Positions 19,870-55,180 of a DNA stretch of 64,000 nt are shown piece after piece. The stretch is from a virus (lineage: Duplodnaviria > Caudoviricetes). Numbering within the stretch: position 1 is the first letter of the stretch; each line of letters starts with the position of its first letter. The translations under genes and the position numbers were made by a program. The notes beneath the pieces are model-generated. The model was not told the DNA's origin and searched no databases. It worked only from the letters and a program-made list of their open reading frames with translations. Where the stretch lies: positions 1-64,000 of IMG/VR virus record IMGVR_UViG_3300035182_002389. One strand, 5' to 3'.

Positions 19870-20046
19870 CCCGTTCCCGTTCCCGTTCCCGTTCCCAGCG
19901 CGCCGAAGGCGCGCGTTCCCGTTCCCGAATCTCGTGCCGAAGGAGCGTCGAGAGCGAGAGCGAGACGAGATCGGGCAGCGGGAACGCTCGCTGCGCTCGC
20001 TGGGAACGGGAACGGGAACGGGAACGGGAACGGGAACGGGAACGGG
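19870..20046 (+). repeat. Family A element: (GTTCCC)n ... (GGGAAC)n inverted arms with internal cGAAg hairpins
   Basis: 4 GTTCCC units at left, 7 GGGAAC units at right, gcgcgccgaaggcgcgc hairpin, conserved core gagacgagatcgggcagcgggaacgctcgctgcg. Confidence 0.92.
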
Positions 20047-27875: not shown

Positions 27876-27906
27876 CAGGGTCCGGGGCGCGCTCGATTTC
27901 GTCCTC

Positions 27907-28026
27907 GTTCCCGTTCCCGTTCCCAGCGCCGAAGGCGCGTTCCCGTTCCCGAAACCCGCCGAAAGCGAGACGAGATCGGGCAGCAGGAACGCTCGCTGCG
28001 CGAGCTGGGAACGGGAACGGGAACGG
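27907..28026 (+). repeat. Family A element, intergenic
   Basis: Same arms and core as 19870. Confidence 0.92.
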
Positions 28027-28029
28027 AGC

Positions 28030-28058
28030 TTGACGAGATGGATAAGGTCATATAGTAT
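28030..28058 (+). promoter_or_regulatory. sigma70 promoter
   Basis: TTGACG-17-TAGTAT immediately after the family A element. Confidence 0.65.
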
Positions 28059-36340: not shown

Positions 36341-36490
36341 GGCGACTGAATCCCGCCAAAGGCGACTGAATCCCGCCAAAGGCGCCCGATCCCGCGCCGA
36401 AGGCGCGCCCGATCCCGCGTCGAAGGCGCGCCCGGTCCCGGTCCCGATCGCCCGGCCCCGGCCCCGGTCCCCGAGACGAGACGAGACGAA
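36341..36490 (+). repeat. Family A variant ((GGTCCC)n arms, cGAAg hairpins) preceded by a 20-bp tandem duplication
   Basis: ggcgactgaatcccgccaaa twice (36341-36380), then cgcgccgaaggcgcg, cgcgtcgaaggcgcg, ccggtcccggtccc, gagacgagacgagacg. Confidence 0.85.
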
Positions 36491-36566
36491 AAGGACGACC
36501 TTCGGTCGAGCACGGGCTTTGCCCGAGGACGCGCCTTCGGCGCGAGGACGGCCTTCGGCCGAGGAA
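36491..36566 (+). repeat. Family C array of four mini-hairpins
   Basis: Units [G/C]A-CG-stem-TTC/TTT-stem-CG-AG with different stems. Confidence 0.88.
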
Positions 36567-38672: not shown

Positions 38673-38730
38673 GGCGTGAGATGACGCGACAACCGCGTCT
38701 ACGGGCAGGCGGCAGGAAAGGCGGGTGGCG

Positions 38731-40781
38731 ATGCTGAGTCGAATCACAGCGCAGCGCAAAAGGCGCTGTTTTATGGTCTACGACATGGAGTGGATCCCGG
38801 GCCAGTTGGAGGTCCGTCTCCTCGGCCTGTACGACGGCGACCGATACCGCGCGTTCCACAAGGTCGACGACTTCCTCAACGCGGTGCTGGTGCGTGAGAA
38901 CGCGGACAAATGGCTCTACGCCCACTACGGCGGCATGGCCGACGCGCAGTTCCTCCTCCAGCGCCTCGCCTCGCGCGCGGACGAGGGCTTTCAGATCGAC
39001 GCGTCCTTCTCGGGCTCGTCGGCCATCATCATCCACGTCACGCGCGGCGAGCTGAGCTGGCACTTCATCGACAGCTTCTGGCTGCTGCGCGATCGGCTCT
39101 CGAAGATCGGCGAAGCGGTCGGCCTCGAAAAGATGGGCGAAGAGTACGCCTGCGACAACTTCCCGAACTGCGGACACGTCGACAGCAACGAGATGAAGTA
39201 TCTCGATCCCTGCTCGTGCACGCACTCCTATGGAGCGCACGACAAGCAGCCGGGCACCAAGGACCTCGCGTGCCTCGCGTGCGGGTGCAGGAAATACGAC
39301 GGCGATCACCCCTACGCGATGTGCGTCTTCTGGGCGCCGATCGCCGAGCTGACGACGTACAACGAACGCGACTGCGTCATCTTGTACAAGGCCATCGAGC
39401 GCTTCGAGCAGACGCTGCTCGATCTCGGCGGCCAGCTCCAGATGACGATTGCCTCGTGCGCGATGCACCTCTTTCGTCGCAAGTACCTCCAAGACGACAT
39501 TCGCACCGTCGCCGCCGTCAACGGGTGGGCTCGAAAGGCCTACACGTCTTCACGCGTGGAGGTGTTCCAGACCCACTGTGAGAACGCTCACTATTTTGAC
39601 CTGAACTCGTCTTTTCCGTTCGCGATGACATTTGACTGTCCTGGCAACGTGAAGAAGATGCGCGCGAAGAAGCTGCCTCCCTACGGCAGCATCTACATCG
39701 CCGAGTGCGAGATCATCGTGCCCGAGATGTACCTGCCGCCGCTGCCGTTCCGGCACGACGGGCGCGTCTTCTTCCCGACGGGCACGTGGACGAGCTGGTT
39801 CTCGAACATCGACCTGGAGCTGCTTCAGAAGCGCGGCGGACGAATCGTGAAGGTGATTCAGTCCATCGAGTTCGAGAAGCAATCCTCTCTTCGCGAGTAC
39901 GCGATCGACATCTATGCAAAGAGAAAAGCCGCGACGACGAGCTACGAAAAGCTCATCCTCAAGTATCTGTTGAATAGCCTTGGGGGCGGGATGCGGATGG
40001 CGCCCTTGGCCGCATCCCGAGCCCCCTCTGGCGCCCATAGGAACTCTACGGAAAGTTCGGCGAGCGCACCGAGAAGACCTCGATGCTGCTCCATCCAACG
40101 TCGACCGACTGTCCTCACACGCCGAAGCATCGGTGCGACAGTTGGCCCATCTGCCCGCACGCCATCGAAGGCGTCGAGTGCAACCTCTGCATCCAGATGC
40201 TGTTCCCTGGGTGTTTGCTCGTCACCAACGAGGTCGAGCTGGCGCACGAGTGGGTGCCCATCGCGGTCCACATCACGGCCACCGCCCGCAAGAACCTCGA
40301 AGGTCACCTCTGGAATGCGCAGGAGGACATCTACTACTGCGACACCGACAGCGTCATCACGACCGTGCAGCTCCCGAGCGATCCGACCACCCTCGGCGCG
40401 CTCAAGCTCGAAGACGAGATCCGTAAGGGCGAGTTCATCGCCTGCAAAATCTACGCGGTCGAAGTCATCGACGAGAAGACTGGCCACGGTCACTGGAAGA
40501 CCAAAGCAAAAGGCTTCTCCAAGATGAACTACAGCAAGTTCGTCGACGTGAAGCTCGGCAACGACATCAAGCTCGCGCGCATGACGCGCATCCGCGAGCT
40601 GTATCGAAAGGGCAAGATCGTCCCCGAGGAGAACATCGTCGCCAAACGCCTCGTGCAGAAGTGCATGGCGAAGCGCTGCATGCTCCCGTCGGGACAAAGC
40701 CGCCCTTGGACGATCGAGGAAATCCAGAGAAACCGCATGGATCTCGGCATCGACATCGATCCCATGATCCTGTCGGATTGA
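38731..40781 (+). CDS. polB: family B DNA polymerase, reading frame interrupted by a 65-nt insertion in motif B
   Basis: ExoI YDME, ExoII HYGGMAD, ExoIII YNERD, motif A DLNSSFP and KYLLNSL in frame +1; LYGKFG, YCDTDS, KIY and KAKG in frame +3. Confidence 0.9.
39982..40046 (+). other. 65-nt hairpin-forming intervening sequence between CTT and CTC Leu codons
   Basis: gggggc-gggatgcgg / ccgcatccc-ga-gccccc stem; removal restores LNSLYGKFG. Confidence 0.85.
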
Positions 40782-42576: not shown

Positions 42577-42585
42577 TGGTATCGT
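42577..42585 (+). promoter_or_regulatory. extended -10 (TGGTATCGT), leaderless promoter candidate
   Basis: 6 nt before ATG 42592; same motif precedes other virion-like genes. Confidence 0.5.
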
Positions 42586-42591
42586 CAAAAC

Positions 42592-43584
42592 ATGTCACAT
42601 GCGCCCGTGATGTACACGCTGTCCGCGCCGAGCCTTTCGGCCCTCGGACAGATCCAAGGAAACTTCAACGACGGCGATCTTGGCGTCGTGGGCCGCGTGT
42701 TCTACGTCTATCGCTCGGCCATTCCTGCGCTGCCGCCCATAGGTGGAACCCTCGCCTACGGAAAAGGGTATTGGGCGCCGTTCAACGATGTCCCCCTCAG
42801 TGAGACGACGCGCGAAATCATCGTCGTGGCAAGCGGGACAACCTCAGCGTTTCGGACGCCCGTCGGCTCGTATTTCGCGGCTCATTCCGAAGACGTGCAA
42901 GTCGACATTTCGACCGACGGCGGTACGAACTGGATCGAGCAGCAATACGGTCCCGACTACAACGCCTACTACTCGGGCATGTGGAACCCGCCGTACGAAC
43001 AGCCGATGAGCGTGCGCGATGTTGCTTCTGGCATCTGGATTTCGGGGGGCTTCCCGCCCGCGGGCTGGCTCGTCCGAATCCGATGGATCGAGCGGACCGC
43101 GGTCTTCTTTCCGCGCACCGTGAGCCCGACGAGGTTCGACTTCAACGGGATCGCCTGGATCGTGAACAACGCCGTGTCGTGGACGACGAGCAACGAGTTG
43201 TACAATCCCAACGGGGTTATCGTTCCGCCTGGGCCCAGCGGGTTCGTTCCTGAGCTGTGGCGCGTAGGACGACATCGCGGAGGGCTCAACCGATCCACGG
43301 TCGGCAAAGACTTTCACGGGTCGGGCCGCCGCTTGCTGCCTTATTTCCGCGGCCCGCAAGCCATCGTGGCCGATCCCAACGGGCTGGTGTTCATCGGCAC
43401 GTCCGACATCGCGGGCCCGTCGCTTTGCAAGTTGAAGTTTCGCGTCTGCTACTACAGTCCAACGCTTCGCGCCCGTACTCCGTTCGCGCCCGGACTCATC
43501 ACGCGTTTTGCGAAGCTCGATCGGCATAACGGCAACTCCACCACCGTCCGCAAGGCGCAAACGATCTACGTGGATCCGTCCTGA
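42592..43584 (+). CDS. beta-rich putative structural or receptor-binding protein
   Basis: Trp/Gly/Pro-rich, atypical codon usage; DISTDGGTNW motif. Confidence 0.55.
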   Translation: MSHAPVMYTLSAPSLSALGQIQGNFNDGDLGVVGRVFYVYRSAIPALPPIGGTLAYGKGYWAPFNDVPLSETTREIIVVASGTTSAFRTPVGSYFAAHSEDVQVDISTDGGTNWIEQQYGPDYNAYYSGMWNPPYEQPMSVRDVASGIWISGGFPPAGWLVRIRWIERTAVFFPRTVSPTRFDFNGIAWIVNNAVSWTTSNELYNPNGVIVPPGPSGFVPELWRVGRHRGGLNRSTVGKDFHGSGRRLLPYFRGPQAIVADPNGLVFIGTSDIAGPSLCKLKFRVCYYSPTLRARTPFAPGLITRFAKLDRHNGNSTTVRKAQTIYVDPS

Positions 43585-43605
43585 TGAAGTGGTAGTCTTT
43601 TTTCC

Positions 43606-43702
43606 GATGCGACCGTGAAGCCGTGGTCCTTTAGCATTCCGGTCGGAGTTCTTTAGGGTGCCGTTCGGCGCCACTTTAGGATCACGCCTCCACGGTCGCA
43701 TC
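43606..43702 (+). ncRNA. candidate structured small RNA
   Basis: 12-bp closing stem, 8-bp inner stem, two hairpins, three CTTTAG junction motifs; TGGTAGTCT promoter at 43590. Confidence 0.5.
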
Positions 43703-44676
43703 TGAGCTTTTGATGCTCCCCGCAGATTCTCTCCATCGCCCCATCACGCTCGCGCCCCTGACGGGGGCGGCGTGGAGGACGCCATGGGAGATCGAAGCCG
43801 TTGCAAAGATCGTGGTCGAGGGGATCGTCGAGACTGCACGCGCGCGTGCGCGCTGAGCGCCTGGAAGCTCTGGACGCGCGTCATGGGCTCAACGTGGCCC
43901 GTGCCCGCAGGGAAGTTCAAGAAGCGTCAGGCGATGAGCTGTCGGTGCCGCAAGCACCCCGTCGGGAGCCCCAAGGTCGGAGGGTCGCTCTGCCACGGGG
44001 GCGCCTATCATCCGGCGACCGTCGAGCGCATCGTCGGCAAGCGCCTCGCGCGCGATTGGCTACGCTTCGGTGAGACGGAGGAACGATGAAGCACGTGATC
44101 CTGGTCGGCCTCGGCCTCTACGTCGTCGTGATGTTCCTCGTCAGCGTCAACCGCACACGCTACGTGATGGCAGGGATGGCGAAGCTGAGGGGCGGAGCGA
44201 CGCTTCCCTTCGCTTGGGCCTACTGGAAGGGCTGGGTCGGGGTCGCGTGGTTCACGCTCTCGGGCATGGTCACCATCCCGTACGAACTCGCCCTCATCGC
44301 TCGCAAGTACGTCAAAGTCCGACGCTCGCAGGATGAGATGGGCGCTGTCGAGGTCCTCGCGGCGCCGAAGGATCCTCCGAGCGAGGAGCCGCCGAGCGAG
44401 GGCCCGTGATCAAGTACGCGATCCTCGCCTACGGGCTCGTCGGGATCACCAACGCGGTCTGGTGGTGCTGGACGGTGCTCGCATTTGCGGCGGCCAAGCA
44501 AGGCTACGACCGCATCCCCTTCGAGGATCTGACCGCACGAATGTGGTGGGGAGCCTTCCTGTTCGGGCTCAAGCAGGCGCTCACCTGGCCCGTGGACGTC
44601 GTGCGACGATTGCGCATGTACGCGTACGGGCGAGGGTGGGTGGACAGGCTCCCGCCCTCGTGAGGCTCGCGAGGGT

Positions 44677-47319: not shown

Positions 47320-47540
47320 CCCGCCGAGAGTCGAGGGCTCGGCCCGATGCGCGAGTCGGGTGAGGGTAGCGGTGAGGGGCCCGCACAACCTCCCCCTGAG
47401 CCCGCGCCCGTCCAGCGCACGCACGGCCTCGGGTGAAGGCTGCGGCGCCGGGGGCACGGGCACCCCACGGCGCTGCTGGCTCAGATTCTAGGTGGAGCGG
47501 GTGGCTGCGGGGCGCGTCCAGCGTGCGAAGCACGCGCTGC

Positions 47541-47590
47541 CCGTTCCCGTTGCCAGTGAGCGAAGCGAACGTTCCCGTTCCCGCTCTCGC
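47541..47590 (-). repeat. Family A right-half fragment, inverted
   Basis: Reverse complement matches the copy at 53448. Confidence 0.8.
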
Positions 47591-48537: not shown

Positions 48538-48556
48538 GTGCGCCTCACACCTCGCG

Positions 48557-48640
48557 AGACGAAAAGGACGCGCCTTCGGCGCGAGCACGACCTTCGGTCG
48601 AGGACGCTCCTTCGGAGCGAGGACGCGCTTCGCGCGAGGC
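48557..48640. repeat. Family C array of four mini-hairpins
   Basis: gagacgaaaaggacgcgccttcggcgcgag cacgaccttcggtcgag gacgctccttcggagcgag gacgcgcttcgcgcgag. Confidence 0.9.
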
Positions 48641-51438: not shown

Positions 51439-53148
51439 ATGAAGAAACCGAACGCGGGAAGCGAAAAGAACGCGCCGTTGGCGCGAGCACGCGCTTCGCG
51501 CGAGGACGCTCCTGCGGAGCGAGGACGCTCCTTTGGAGCGAGCGGCGAGAAGCAAAAGTACGTCGCGGGGCGCCCCGTGCGGGTCGGCGACAGGTTCGGC
51601 GAGCTGACCGTCACCGAGCAGATCGAAGCGCCCGACCACAAGACCTACCAAGGTCGGCACTGGCTCTGCACGTGCGACTGCGGCAACCCTGCGATTCGCA
51701 CGACCACGACGCTTCAGCAAGCGCTCGCAAAAGGGCACGTCTCTTCCTGCCGAGAGTGCTGGCTGGAGCTGCTCCGATCGCGCACGGCGGAGACGTTCGA
51801 CCAGGAACGAACCAAGACGCGCACCGCGCTCGCATCGCTGTGGGCGCAGCATCGAACGCTCTACAGCGTCGCCTACGACGCGCGCGAAGAAGAACGGATT
51901 CGAGACGCCATCGAAGAGGACGGGATCCCGATCCGGTCGGAGGAGTCGCTCTCCGAGCAGTACGCCGTCGAGCCCTCACTGCTGAACGTCGACGCTCCCT
52001 CGTCGGCGGAGACGACCACGGCCCCGGTGCAGCGCGCCGCGTACCTCTATCCCGTCGGAGGCGGCGAGCTTTGCTGGGCGTGCATCACGTGTGGCGAGAC
52101 CTTTTCGCGAGGGTTCGGGTGCACGCTCTGCATCGAGCCCGTCTGCATGGACTGCGTGAGGAGCGAGGCGCACGTCCACACCGAAGACGAAGACGGCCTG
52201 ATGCTGCATCAGATTGCGGCGGAGTTCGATCGGAGCCGCGAGCGCGTCCGGCAGATGGAGACGCAGGGTCTCACCAAGCTGCGTCACCTCCACATGGCTT
52301 CACTCGTCAGGACCCTCGGGGCGGACTACGTGAGCGTGCACGCGTTTCTTCGCGCCTTGCACCCCGAGCTTCTCGACGTCGGCGAGATGCTTGCTGTGCT
52401 CGACTGGCGCGAGCGCATGGCGCGCGAAGCGAAGGTCGCCGCGTACAGGGCCGCAGAGGAGGCGGCCGAGAGGGCCGCAGAAACGCGGAGGATCATCGAA
52501 GAGCGTCGCCAGGCCAAGCGTGAAGAAGAACAGCGTCGCCGGGCCGAGCTTGCTGCCCAACCCGAGGAAGTGAGGGCGCTTCGTATTCAGCGCAACCTCG
52601 CGCGTCGTGAGACGGAGACGACGCGGCTGGCGAACGATCTCGCAGCCTGGCACGCGAACCTCGAAGCGTTGCGTGCGAGCGAGCCCGAACGAGATCGGCG
52701 CGCGGCCGAGGCGAAGAGCGCGCTCGAACTCGAACGCATCGAGAACGAGAAGAGGCGCAGCGCCGAGGTGATGGAAGAGGCCCGTAAGACCCTCGCCACG
52801 ACCTCCGCCGTCTTCGTCCCGAGCAAGCTCAGGGTCGCCGCGCGCAAGCAAGACCTCCTCGCGATCCTCATGCTCCCCGTCGGCGAGTTCGATTTCAGCG
52901 AGGAGGTGCGAGGCGCACTCGTCGAGGCCGGCGCCGAGTACATCGGCGATCTTCTCTGCGAGCTGTCGTGCCCGCCTTCGCGATGGGTCGGACCTCTGCT
53001 CGGCGCGGAGGTGCTGTTCGCGTTGCGAGAGGTCGGCCTCAACTTCGGCGTCAACATCTACGCGCTCACGGGCAGGAAAGGCTCGGAGCTGCCGTTCGCG
53101 ACCCCGTTCGTCAAGCGGATGGGGAAGGTTTCAACCAAAAAACATTGA
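51439..53148 (+). CDS. multidomain transcription-factor-like protein (CxCxC zinc module, sigma70 region-4 HTH, coiled coil, RNAP alpha-CTD-like domain)
   Basis: GELTV..WLCTCDCGN; LHQIAAEFDRSRERVRQME..GL.KLRH; LPVGEFDFS..GALVEAG..IGDL. Confidence 0.7.
   Translation: MKKPNAGSEKNAPLARARASREDAPAERGRSFGASGEKQKYVAGRPVRVGDRFGELTVTEQIEAPDHKTYQGRHWLCTCDCGNPAIRTTTTLQQALAKGHVSSCRECWLELLRSRTAETFDQERTKTRTALASLWAQHRTLYSVAYDAREEERIRDAIEEDGIPIRSEESLSEQYAVEPSLLNVDAPSSAETTTAPVQRAAYLYPVGGGELCWACITCGETFSRGFGCTLCIEPVCMDCVRSEAHVHTEDEDGLMLHQIAAEFDRSRERVRQMETQGLTKLRHLHMASLVRTLGADYVSVHAFLRALHPELLDVGEMLAVLDWRERMAREAKVAAYRAAEEAAERAAETRRIIEERRQAKREEEQRRRAELAAQPEEVRALRIQRNLARRETETTRLANDLAAWHANLEALRASEPERDRRAAEAKSALELERIENEKRRSAEVMEEARKTLATTSAVFVPSKLRVAARKQDLLAILMLPVGEFDFSEEVRGALVEAGAEYIGDLLCELSCPPSRWVGPLLGAEVLFALREVGLNFGVNIYALTGRKGSELPFATPFVKRMGKVSTKKH
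51463..51545 (+). repeat. Family C array, in-frame in the N-terminus of the 51439 gene
   Basis: Four units incl. gacgctcctgcggagcgag; encodes KNAPLARARASREDAPAERGRSFGAS. Confidence 0.8.
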
Positions 53149-53173: not shown

Positions 53174-53447
53174 GAGCGTTCCCTCGCGAGGGTCTGAAGG
53201 AGACGGTATGGGCGAGACGTGCAAGCTGAGGGCGTGGGGGTCGGGCGACAAGGAAGACTGCGGCTCGCCGGCGGGCTCGCACGGCTACTGCCAGAAGTGC
53301 TACCCGCTCGTGCGAGGTGGCATCCTCGCGCGCATTCGAGAGGCCGAGCGCGACCTCGAATCCGACAGGTTGGAGCTGCGCCAGCTCGAAGCGGCAGAGG
53401 CTCGCGACATCGCCAAGCGCTGCTTCGGCGGAGACATCTGAGGCAAG

Positions 53448-53523
53448 GCGAGACGAGATGGGGAACGGGAACGCTCGCTTCGCGAGCTGGCAACGGGAAC
53501 GGGAACGCTCGCTTCGCGAGCTG
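53448..53523 (+). repeat. Family A right-half fragment with internal duplication
   Basis: gggaacgggaacgctcgcttcgcgagctg twice. Confidence 0.85.
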
Positions 53524-54172: not shown

Positions 54173-55180
54173 ATGCGCCTTGGATGGATCACCGACCCCC
54201 ACATGAACTTCGTGAGCACGCTCGACTGGTGGCGCGAGCTGCTCAAAGAGGGCGACGACGCCTACCTCATCACGGGCGACATCGCGGAGGCCTCGTCCAT
54301 CATCCCGTCGCTCCAGGCGCTCGCGGCGGAACTGCCCGCCGGCAAGGTCATCTACTTCGTGCTCGGCAACCACGATTTTTACGGCTCCTCGATGCCGGGC
54401 CGTCCGAGGGCGACCATCGCGGACACGCGCGCGAGGGTCGCACACTTCGCGAAGTACGAGCCGAAGCTCGTCTACCTGCACGACCTCGATCCCTTTGCCA
54501 GCGCGCCGAAGGCGCGCGTTCCCGTTCCCGTTCCCGAATCCCGCGCCGAAGGCGCGTCTCGTCTCCCTGCGCTGGGACGAGACGAAATCGGGAAGGGGGA
54601 ACGCTCGCTGCGCGAGCTGGAAACGGGAACGGGAACGGGAAACGGGTACGTCGAGATCGCTCCGAACACCGCGCTGGTCGGCGTCGACGGCTGGTACGAC
54701 ACGCTCAACGGCGACGTGAAGAGGAGTCGCTGCGGACTCGCGGACTTCCACCTCATCCCGGACATGAACTGCCCGGCGAAGGAGAGGAACGCCCTCTGCC
54801 AGACCCTCACGATGATGGACGCCGTGCGGCTCCAGAAGATGATCGAGAACGCGCTCGGCGACAAGCGCGTCGTCGAGCTGGTCGTCGCGACGCACGTGCC
54901 GCCGTTTTCGGGCGCGGCGTGGCATCTCGGCGAAGTGAGCGACTCCGAGCACCTGCCCTACTTCTCGAACCGCCTCGTCGGCAAAGCCATCGTCGAGTCG
55001 ACCGAAGACTTTCGACAAGCCGGCGGCAAGGTGACGGTGCTGTGCGGCCACTCGCACTCGGAGGGGAAAATCTATCCCCACCACAACCTCAAGGTGCTCA
55101 CCGGCGCGGCCGAATACTACGCGCCGAAGAAGCACATGACGCTCGCGCTCGGCGAGCTTGTCCGTTCGGAGAACTGGTGA
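54173..55180 (+). CDS. calcineurin-like metallophosphoesterase with in-frame repeat insertion
   Basis: TDPH, TGDI, LGNHD, THVPP, CGHSH motifs. Confidence 0.88.
   Translation: MRLGWITDPHMNFVSTLDWWRELLKEGDDAYLITGDIAEASSIIPSLQALAAELPAGKVIYFVLGNHDFYGSSMPGRPRATIADTRARVAHFAKYEPKLVYLHDLDPFASAPKARVPVPVPESRAEGASRLPALGRDEIGKGERSLRELETGTGTGNGYVEIAPNTALVGVDGWYDTLNGDVKRSRCGLADFHLIPDMNCPAKERNALCQTLTMMDAVRLQKMIENALGDKRVVELVVATHVPPFSGAAWHLGEVSDSEHLPYFSNRLVGKAIVESTEDFRQAGGKVTVLCGHSHSEGKIYPHHNLKVLTGAAEYYAPKKHMTLALGELVRSENW
54497..54646 (+). repeat. Family A element, 150 nt, in-frame (50 codons)
   Basis: Encodes ASAPKARVPVPVPES...RELETGTGTGNG between YLHDLDPF and YVEIAPN. Confidence 0.92.

Follow-up and report, generated by a model that had tools for sequence, protein, structure and literature searches.

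A three-way-junction RNA with three-fold pseudo-symmetry adjoins a putative fibre gene in distantly related viruses

The DNA analysed here, called the window below, is a stretch of 64,000 nucleotides corresponding to the first 64 kb of a virus record of 202.5 kb (65% GC). Within it, the gap between the gene that we call gene A and the next gene, whose ATG lies at 43784, is filled by the RNA element that is the subject of this work (Table 1). Neither gene A nor its neighbouring genes gave a match in Pfam or PHROG, the polymerase alone being recognised: it is a protein-primed-type family B DNA polymerase encoded at 38725-40527, 3 kb upstream of the element (PF03175, E 2e-26). No toxin-like neighbour of the element was found with Pfam or PHROG. 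A separate 7-bp GC hairpin with a UGA triloop (GCGCCCC/GGGGGCG) is located at 43751-43769, just 5′ of the GGAGGA ribosome-binding site of the next gene.

Other repeated sequences are scattered over the window. A palindromic repeat family, (GTTCCC)n / (GGGAAC)n, is represented by at least five copies (19870-20030, 27900-28040, 47540-47590, 53440-53510 and 54490-54650). Arrays of four small UUCG-type hairpins with fixed AGGA or AGCA linkers occur at 36478-36565, 48553-48640 and 51455-51528, one of them directly preceding a gene start. They are another linker-plus-hairpin design of the same virus, and their GGA-containing linkers are reminiscent of CsrA-binding RNAs.

Table 1. Features of gene A, the RNA element and the next gene (window coordinates)
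Feature	Position	Strand	Remarks
Gene A extended -10 box TGGTATCGT	42577..42585	+	6 nt before the gene A ATG, leaderless layout
Gene A	42592..43584	+	330 aa, all-beta; constant partner of the RNA
Extended -10 box TGGTAGTCT	43590..43598	+	predicted start 43605-43606 = first base of P1
P1, 5′ strand	43606..43630	+	12 bp outer, unpaired A 43618, AG 43619-20, unpaired C 43621, 9 bp inner ending in CU 43629-30
Junction linker J1	43631..43632	+	UU
P2 hairpin	43633..43652	+	AG, 6-position stem (5 standard pairs and one C.U mismatch), GGUC loop 43641-44, CU
Junction linker J2	43653..43654	+	UU
P3 hairpin	43655..43675	+	AG, 6-bp stem, GUUC loop 43663-66, bulged A 43673, CU
Junction linker J3	43676..43677	+	UU
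P1, 3′ strand	43678..43702	+	AG 43678-79, inner part, unpaired C 43687 (C.C with 43621), CU 43688-89, unpaired C 43690, 12 bp outer
T-run TTTT	43709..43712	+	6 nt past P1; weak candidate for the 3′ end of the RNA
Next gene	43784..44089	+	ATG 43784, GGAGGA 43774-79; not conserved in other loci

A preliminary description of this DNA, made from the sequence alone, had proposed a small structured RNA at this place, and the pairings on which it relied are confirmed. The perfect 12-bp stem exists, GATGCGACCGTG (43606-17) being the exact reverse complement of CACGGTCGCATC (43691-702); the inner stem is formed by CGTGGTCC (43622-29) and GGATCACG (43679-86) with one G.U pair, and RNAfold gives the three-way junction with two hairpins that had been described. 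On the + strand, the segment 43606-43702 folds at -56.9 kcal/mol, compared with a mean of -34.2 kcal/mol for shuffled sequences (z -6.5), and none of 200 shuffles was as good. This segment encodes a real structured RNA of about 97 nt, read from the + strand. The three CTTTAG words pointed out earlier are also there, at 43629, 43651 and 43674, and represent three of the five copies present in the 64-kb window. Their supposed display as repeated single-stranded motifs is not what the fold provides: with their CU and AG ends they supply the two junction-proximal base pairs of each of the three helices, which leaves just the UU in their middle unpaired. A descriptor scan found the arrangement of the element once in the whole 202-kb genome.

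The search of Rfam that the same description had suggested as a check was run and matched no family: nothing in the 64 kb reached the gathering score of a family, and relaxing the threshold to E 10 added just two chance matches, to a miRNA and a snoRNA. ARAGORN detected no tRNA or tmRNA. Moreover, no description of the RNA family was found in Rfam or in the literature searched. The RNA is a member of a new, previously undescribed family of three-way-junction RNAs.

The motif TGGTAnnnT is a genome-wide extended -10 box (for example at 42577, 45128, 46297(-), 46915(-), 48481(-) and 51324(-) of the window), several copies being accompanied by a TTGCGACAAG-like box further upstream. The genome carries 18 copies, 16 of which are located at most 42 nt before the start of an ORF. 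Seven, among them that of gene A, stand 6-8 nt before an ATG in a leaderless layout, implying that many mRNAs of this virus would be leaderless. The copy at 43590 is one of only two without an ORF behind. The extended -10 box that had been recognised there, TGGTAGTCT (43590-98), is of the virus's own promoter type, with a predicted start at about 43605-06, which is the first base of P1. As for the T-run said to follow the 3′ end, TTTT is present at 43709-12, but it is placed 6 nt past the stem instead of being adjacent to it and makes a poor terminator; neither this T-run nor the element was called by the terminator scan.

Signals of the same kind accompany the element in other viruses. The closest relatives, L002, L006 and L013, show -10-like boxes 7-17 nt before P1: GATAGTCT, TGCTACGCT or TATAAT, the last preceded at 17 nt by a TCGACA box. 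The region 4733-4800 of L006 displays the element, then a canonical terminator hairpin with six T/U, then another TGGTATCCT box, so that this kind of promoter also serves related viruses. In L013, a terminator hairpin and then a convergent gene follow the element, while in L016 six U come directly after P1. Thus, in the window and its closest relatives, the RNA looks like both an independent transcription unit and the 3′ end of the gene A mRNA, and in the window's virus a separate RNA is probably produced from the TGGTAGTCT promoter. In distant members the element begins 0-7 nt after the stop codon; because this leaves no room for a separate promoter, it may exist there only as a 3′ UTR or as a processed product. 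Readthrough of the stop codon was considered and rejected, since the frame closes after 23 codons and the spacing varies from 0 to 62 nt.

Loci were fetched around relatives of gene A, with 27-58% protein identity, from genomes of 45-73% GC. In every locus with readable downstream DNA, the RNA architecture is found 0-62 nt 3′ of the stop codon of the gene A relative. This amounts to 15 distinct loci: the window and L002, L006, L013, L016, L017, L018, L019, L022, L025, L026, L027, L030, L031 and L032. L015, a near-identical copy of the window, is kept apart from them, and L023 and L024 carry an aberrant long-stem form of the element, also beside these 15. Loci with the element include those of a 960-aa fibre, of a collagen-bearing fibre and of a phage in which a terminase-like gene directly follows the element and starts a new module (L026). 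The downstream genes are convergent in L013 and L027; co-directional genes flank the element in the window, L002, L017 and L018.

The covariance model found exactly one copy of the element per virus record in the three records of 202, 199 and 64 kb. No homologue of the window's other neighbouring genes occurs in any of the other loci, gene A being the only common neighbour. With this single copy and this single common neighbour, gene A and the RNA thus form a cassette of two parts, mobile among genomes that are not otherwise related. In the INPHARED phage collection nothing matched at the DNA or protein level, and neither the RNA pattern nor gene A was found in representative bacterial genomes. 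A scan of viral contigs for three CTTTAG-like words returned only tandem repeats and chance matches in AT-rich DNA, all of which were rejected by the covariance model. The sole marginal pattern match, L107, is a 12-nt tandem repeat and was not retained as a member. In JGI sample 3300075153, a contig of 9254 nt carries five or six gene A paralogues in tandem; gaps of 140, 172 and 306 nt, big enough for the RNA, follow three of these genes, including the last one of each co-directional run.

Covariation was examined in an alignment (A7) of 15 sequences and 42 pairs, using as controls 3′ partners slid by 1-3 columns and 500 shuffles. Standard pairs occupy 91.2% of the pair cells of the 15 sequences, compared with 34-48% once the partners are slid. 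None of the 500 shuffles matches any of the covariation measures, keeping in mind that statistics of this sort are inflated by the shared ancestry of the sequences. Ancestry does not seem to be the whole story, given the slid controls and the variety of pair types. Homolog covariation had been named in the preliminary description as a means of checking its proposal, and the pairing is kept in the 15 sequences, with double changes in 33 of the 42 pairs. On the + strand, G.U combinations outnumber A.C ones (43 versus 15 over the 15 sequences), and two distant members have UUCG loops. Together, covariation, the G.U excess and the UUCG loops indicate that the element, as judged from these comparisons, is an RNA rather than a DNA structure; it would be read in the direction of gene A, the + strand being the one on which G.U outnumbers A.C. 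The structured RNA first suspected is consequently a conserved + strand RNA with strong covariation, and what the early reading had missed is its tie to the upstream gene across very distant viruses.

The fold of this RNA is three-fold pseudo-symmetric. Every helix joins the junction as 5′-AG...CU-3′, and the junction-proximal A-U pair is retained in 13 of 15 sequences for P1, in 13 of 15 for P2 and in 11 of 15 for P3. P2 and P3 consist of 8 bp plus a tetraloop, and P1 has a pyrimidine mismatch 9-10 bp from the junction, approximately where the other arms carry their loops. Each arm thereby measures 8-9 bp up to an irregularity, either a tetraloop (P2, P3) or a pyrimidine mismatch (P1). The P1 pair 20-88 is unpaired in 8 of 15 sequences, and the four closest members have a C.C, C.A or U.U mismatch at position 19/89.

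The linkers between these helices have 1-3 nt, UU in the window's group and UA, CA, CC or GA elsewhere. In 8 of the 15 elements the three strands carry one and the same linker, and in every element at least two of them do. The same holds for the loops: linkers and loops are alike within an element and differ between elements. For the loops of P2 and P3, 3.27 of 4 positions are common within an element versus 1.99 between elements, a value reached by none of 10000 permutations. Gene conversion does not easily account for this concerted change, since the stems between the linkers differ; selection for symmetry can explain it.

The protein partner in the cassette belongs to a large family, comprising 84 clusters at 50% identity. 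Its conserved part is the C-terminal region of about 260 residues, with which relatives as long as 1055 aa terminate. Collagen triple-helix repeats precede the A domain in one relative, and a DUF2793 in another. The AlphaFold model of gene A is all-beta (pLDDT 76.5), and fold searches (Foldseek against PDB and BFVD, and a wide VIA search) returned weak matches only, the best with a Z of 6.7, to phage fibre or tailspike adaptor and FN3-like domains. No known RNA-binding fold was identified among the Pfam, PHROG or structure matches. A copy of the first 65 residues, at 42% identity, starts a second gene outside the window (171188-171388 of the genome) and is probably an anchor domain common to two different fibre or spike proteins. 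Collagen repeats imply homotrimers. Taking the domain architecture as a whole, the gene A product is probably the distal domain of a trimeric fibre or spike.

We tentatively propose, with slightly less than even confidence, that the RNA is a docking RNA for the gene A fibre trimer, acting in assembly or in feedback on the mRNA. Its three equivalent sites would dock a three-fold symmetric protein, the likeliest partner being the homotrimeric fibre protein encoded by the adjoining gene A, and the RNA would aid assembly of the fibre or feed back on the fibre mRNA. The stable fold would also shield the 3′ end of the gene A mRNA, as a side effect. A symmetric partner is favoured because it would read just the features that are conserved, namely junction geometry, arm length, equally spaced irregularities and concerted linkers and loops; termination, a barrier to exonucleases or cleavage by RNase III does not need them. 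The fibre trimer is the preferred partner because gene A alone is inherited with the RNA and because its product is probably a homotrimer. The RNA is not a base-pairing sRNA, since it offers almost no free bases, with 1-3 unpaired nucleotides per junction strand and variable tetraloops. A narrower claim is that the RNA works as an assembly chaperone templating trimerisation of the A domain, or as a ribonucleoprotein cofactor regulating the fibre. The scaffold would then bind three copies of the newly made A domain, and its gene would take the slot that in other phages belongs to a protein chaperone. We regard this narrower claim as unlikely.

The main rival to the docking role is a generic 3′-end module, in which a branched, GC-rich structure terminates transcription partly or fully, blocks 3′ exonucleases, is maintained for its stability alone and travels with the fibre gene within its expression cassette. 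We consider it rather improbable, yet ahead of all the other rivals. It agrees with the position of the element, always directly past a stop codon and followed by convergent genes (L013, L027) or by a new module (L026), with the six U found directly after P1 in L016, and with the length of P1, which at 20-28 bp is very stable. Stability alone nevertheless leaves unexplained why A-U pairs persist next to the junction even where the genome reaches 73% GC, and it does not explain the fixed 8-bp arms, the P1 mismatch at a fixed distance or the concerted linkers and loops. Besides, an ordinary terminator, distinct from the element, comes immediately after it in L006 and L013, and the window copy fails the terminator scan.

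Two further proposals are clearly less probable, to the same degree. According to the first, the element is a processing site or retroregulator: a P1 of about two turns would be cut by an RNase III-like enzyme, setting the half-life of the fibre mRNA and splitting off the downstream genes. P1 does measure consistently about two helical turns, with 1x1 mismatches 9-10 bp from the junction, and the genes on either side of the element point the same way in the window, L002, L017 and L018. An RNase III site, however, can do without a branched top, a conserved junction or three-fold symmetry, and several loci have no co-transcribed downstream gene to be separated.

The second is a decoy or sponge for a host factor, for instance a three-fold symmetric enzyme like trimeric PNPase, a defence sensor or an RNA chaperone; the RNA would be made in excess from its own promoter. 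Such a role could make use of the promoter of the virus's standard type and of the three equivalent sites. Yet a host-directed RNA has no reason to stay by one viral gene across genomes of 45-73% GC, presumably in different hosts, and the variation of loops and linkers between viruses is a better fit to a virus-encoded partner. A sponge of the CsrA type binding through GGA was discarded separately, AGGA not being kept across the members.

A ligand-sensing riboswitch or a self-cleaving ribozyme built on the three-way junction is very improbable: a conserved junction with variable helices does recall purine riboswitches and hammerheads, and in the window a promoter precedes the element and genes follow it, but no Rfam family matches, the 1-3 unpaired bases per junction strand, of varying identity, are too little for a pocket or a catalytic core, and the element is not in a 5′ leader, its downstream genes being convergent in L013 and L027 and non-homologous between loci. 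Neither the hammerhead core (CUGANGA, GAAA) nor any other known ribozyme core is seen in these junction strands, which are short (1-3 nt) and variable.

At the same very low level we place a DNA-level feature or mobile palindromic repeat (REP- or MITE-like, a recombination or packaging site, or the target hairpin of a DGR), which would account for the element scoring on both strands but not for its single copy per genome, its fixed place behind one gene family, the excess of G.U over A.C pointing to one transcribed strand, or the different sequences of P2 and P3 within an element, both of which one DNA-binding protein could not read. Candidates of this type had been considered individually. 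A dispersed REP- or MITE-like repeat was rejected on finding exactly one copy in the records of 202, 199 and 64 kb, and a DGR target hairpin on finding that the genome lacks an RVT_1 match and contains the 3′ part of gene A only once. Mimicry of CRISPR repeats, suggested by CUAAG- and AAAG-like words, was also abandoned, the stems differing within and between elements.

The docking RNA proposed here can be compared with several known systems. The pRNA of the phi29 type (Rfam Phage_pRNA) is likewise a phage RNA of about 100-170 nt with a compact three-way junction and U-rich linkers, it docks on a symmetric protein assembly as we propose for the present RNA, and the window's virus too has a protein-primed-type DNA polymerase. 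On the other hand, the pRNA covariance model is not matched. A loop-loop ring is not possible, because P2 and P3 have similar rather than complementary loops in the 15 members (in the window, GGUC and GUUC). The RNA is, moreover, tied to a fibre-domain gene and not to the packaging motor, and the phage of L026 has a classical terminase-like gene.

The 3′-UTR sRNAs of the DapZ and MicL type have their promoter where the upstream gene finishes and share their 3′ end with its mRNA. The present RNA would resemble them as a UTR and putative free small RNA with a predicted promoter box near the end of a gene. DapZ- and MicL-type sRNAs act via single-stranded seeds and Hfq, whereas the RNA described here is almost fully paired, without conserved free sequence or seed. 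Lambda sib, the RNase III (R) sites of T7 and 3′ stabiliser hairpins are simple irregular hairpins. They are similar to our element in their position directly after a gene and in their approximately two helix turns with internal mismatches, and both probably influence how stable the mRNA upstream is; none of them has a three-fold symmetric junction with concerted arms.

Tfa, T4 gp38 and gp57A are tail-fibre assembly chaperones, proteins serving a homotrimer. The RNA occupies the same kind of slot, right after a fibre-tip gene, in a cassette that travels with the fibre gene. The difference is that these chaperones are proteins and not RNA, and the assembly role of the RNA is hypothetical. ToxI, the type III antitoxin, is made of tandem identical 36-nt repeats upstream of the gene of an endoribonuclease toxin, which cuts them into units. 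It too combines linkers and structured units in a repeated manner and assembles with its protein into a three-fold symmetric particle. Here, in contrast, the units differ in sequence (P2 versus P3 stems) and are joined by the closing stem P1, and the RNA follows its partner gene, with no toxin-like protein. The RNA fits none of these nearest analogues. The roles first suggested for it, namely a protein sponge, a packaging RNA or an antitoxin, thus find nothing specific to any of them, there being no match to pRNA or any other Rfam family and no toxin-like neighbour.

Orphan structured RNAs are common in phages. In the present case, the genetic partner is unusually clear and the design is itself unusual. 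A gene family and an RNA family have remained neighbours amid changing surroundings, and the arms of the RNA mutate in concert. Whichever function holds, the RNA merits its own entry as a new RNA family. If it were only a terminator or stabiliser, it would still illustrate that selection is able to hold a branched 3′ end strictly symmetric. If the docking role proves true, it would offer RNA engineers a natural symmetric three-way junction. Should the RNA be a chaperone or ribonucleoprotein cofactor, it would be the first one of this kind to serve the host-recognition protein of a virus, as well as a natural RNA fitted to the three-fold axis of a protein. The prediction is a 3:1 complex between the fibre-tip trimer and its own 3′ RNA; if it holds, it would represent a new viral route to build or control host-recognition proteins.
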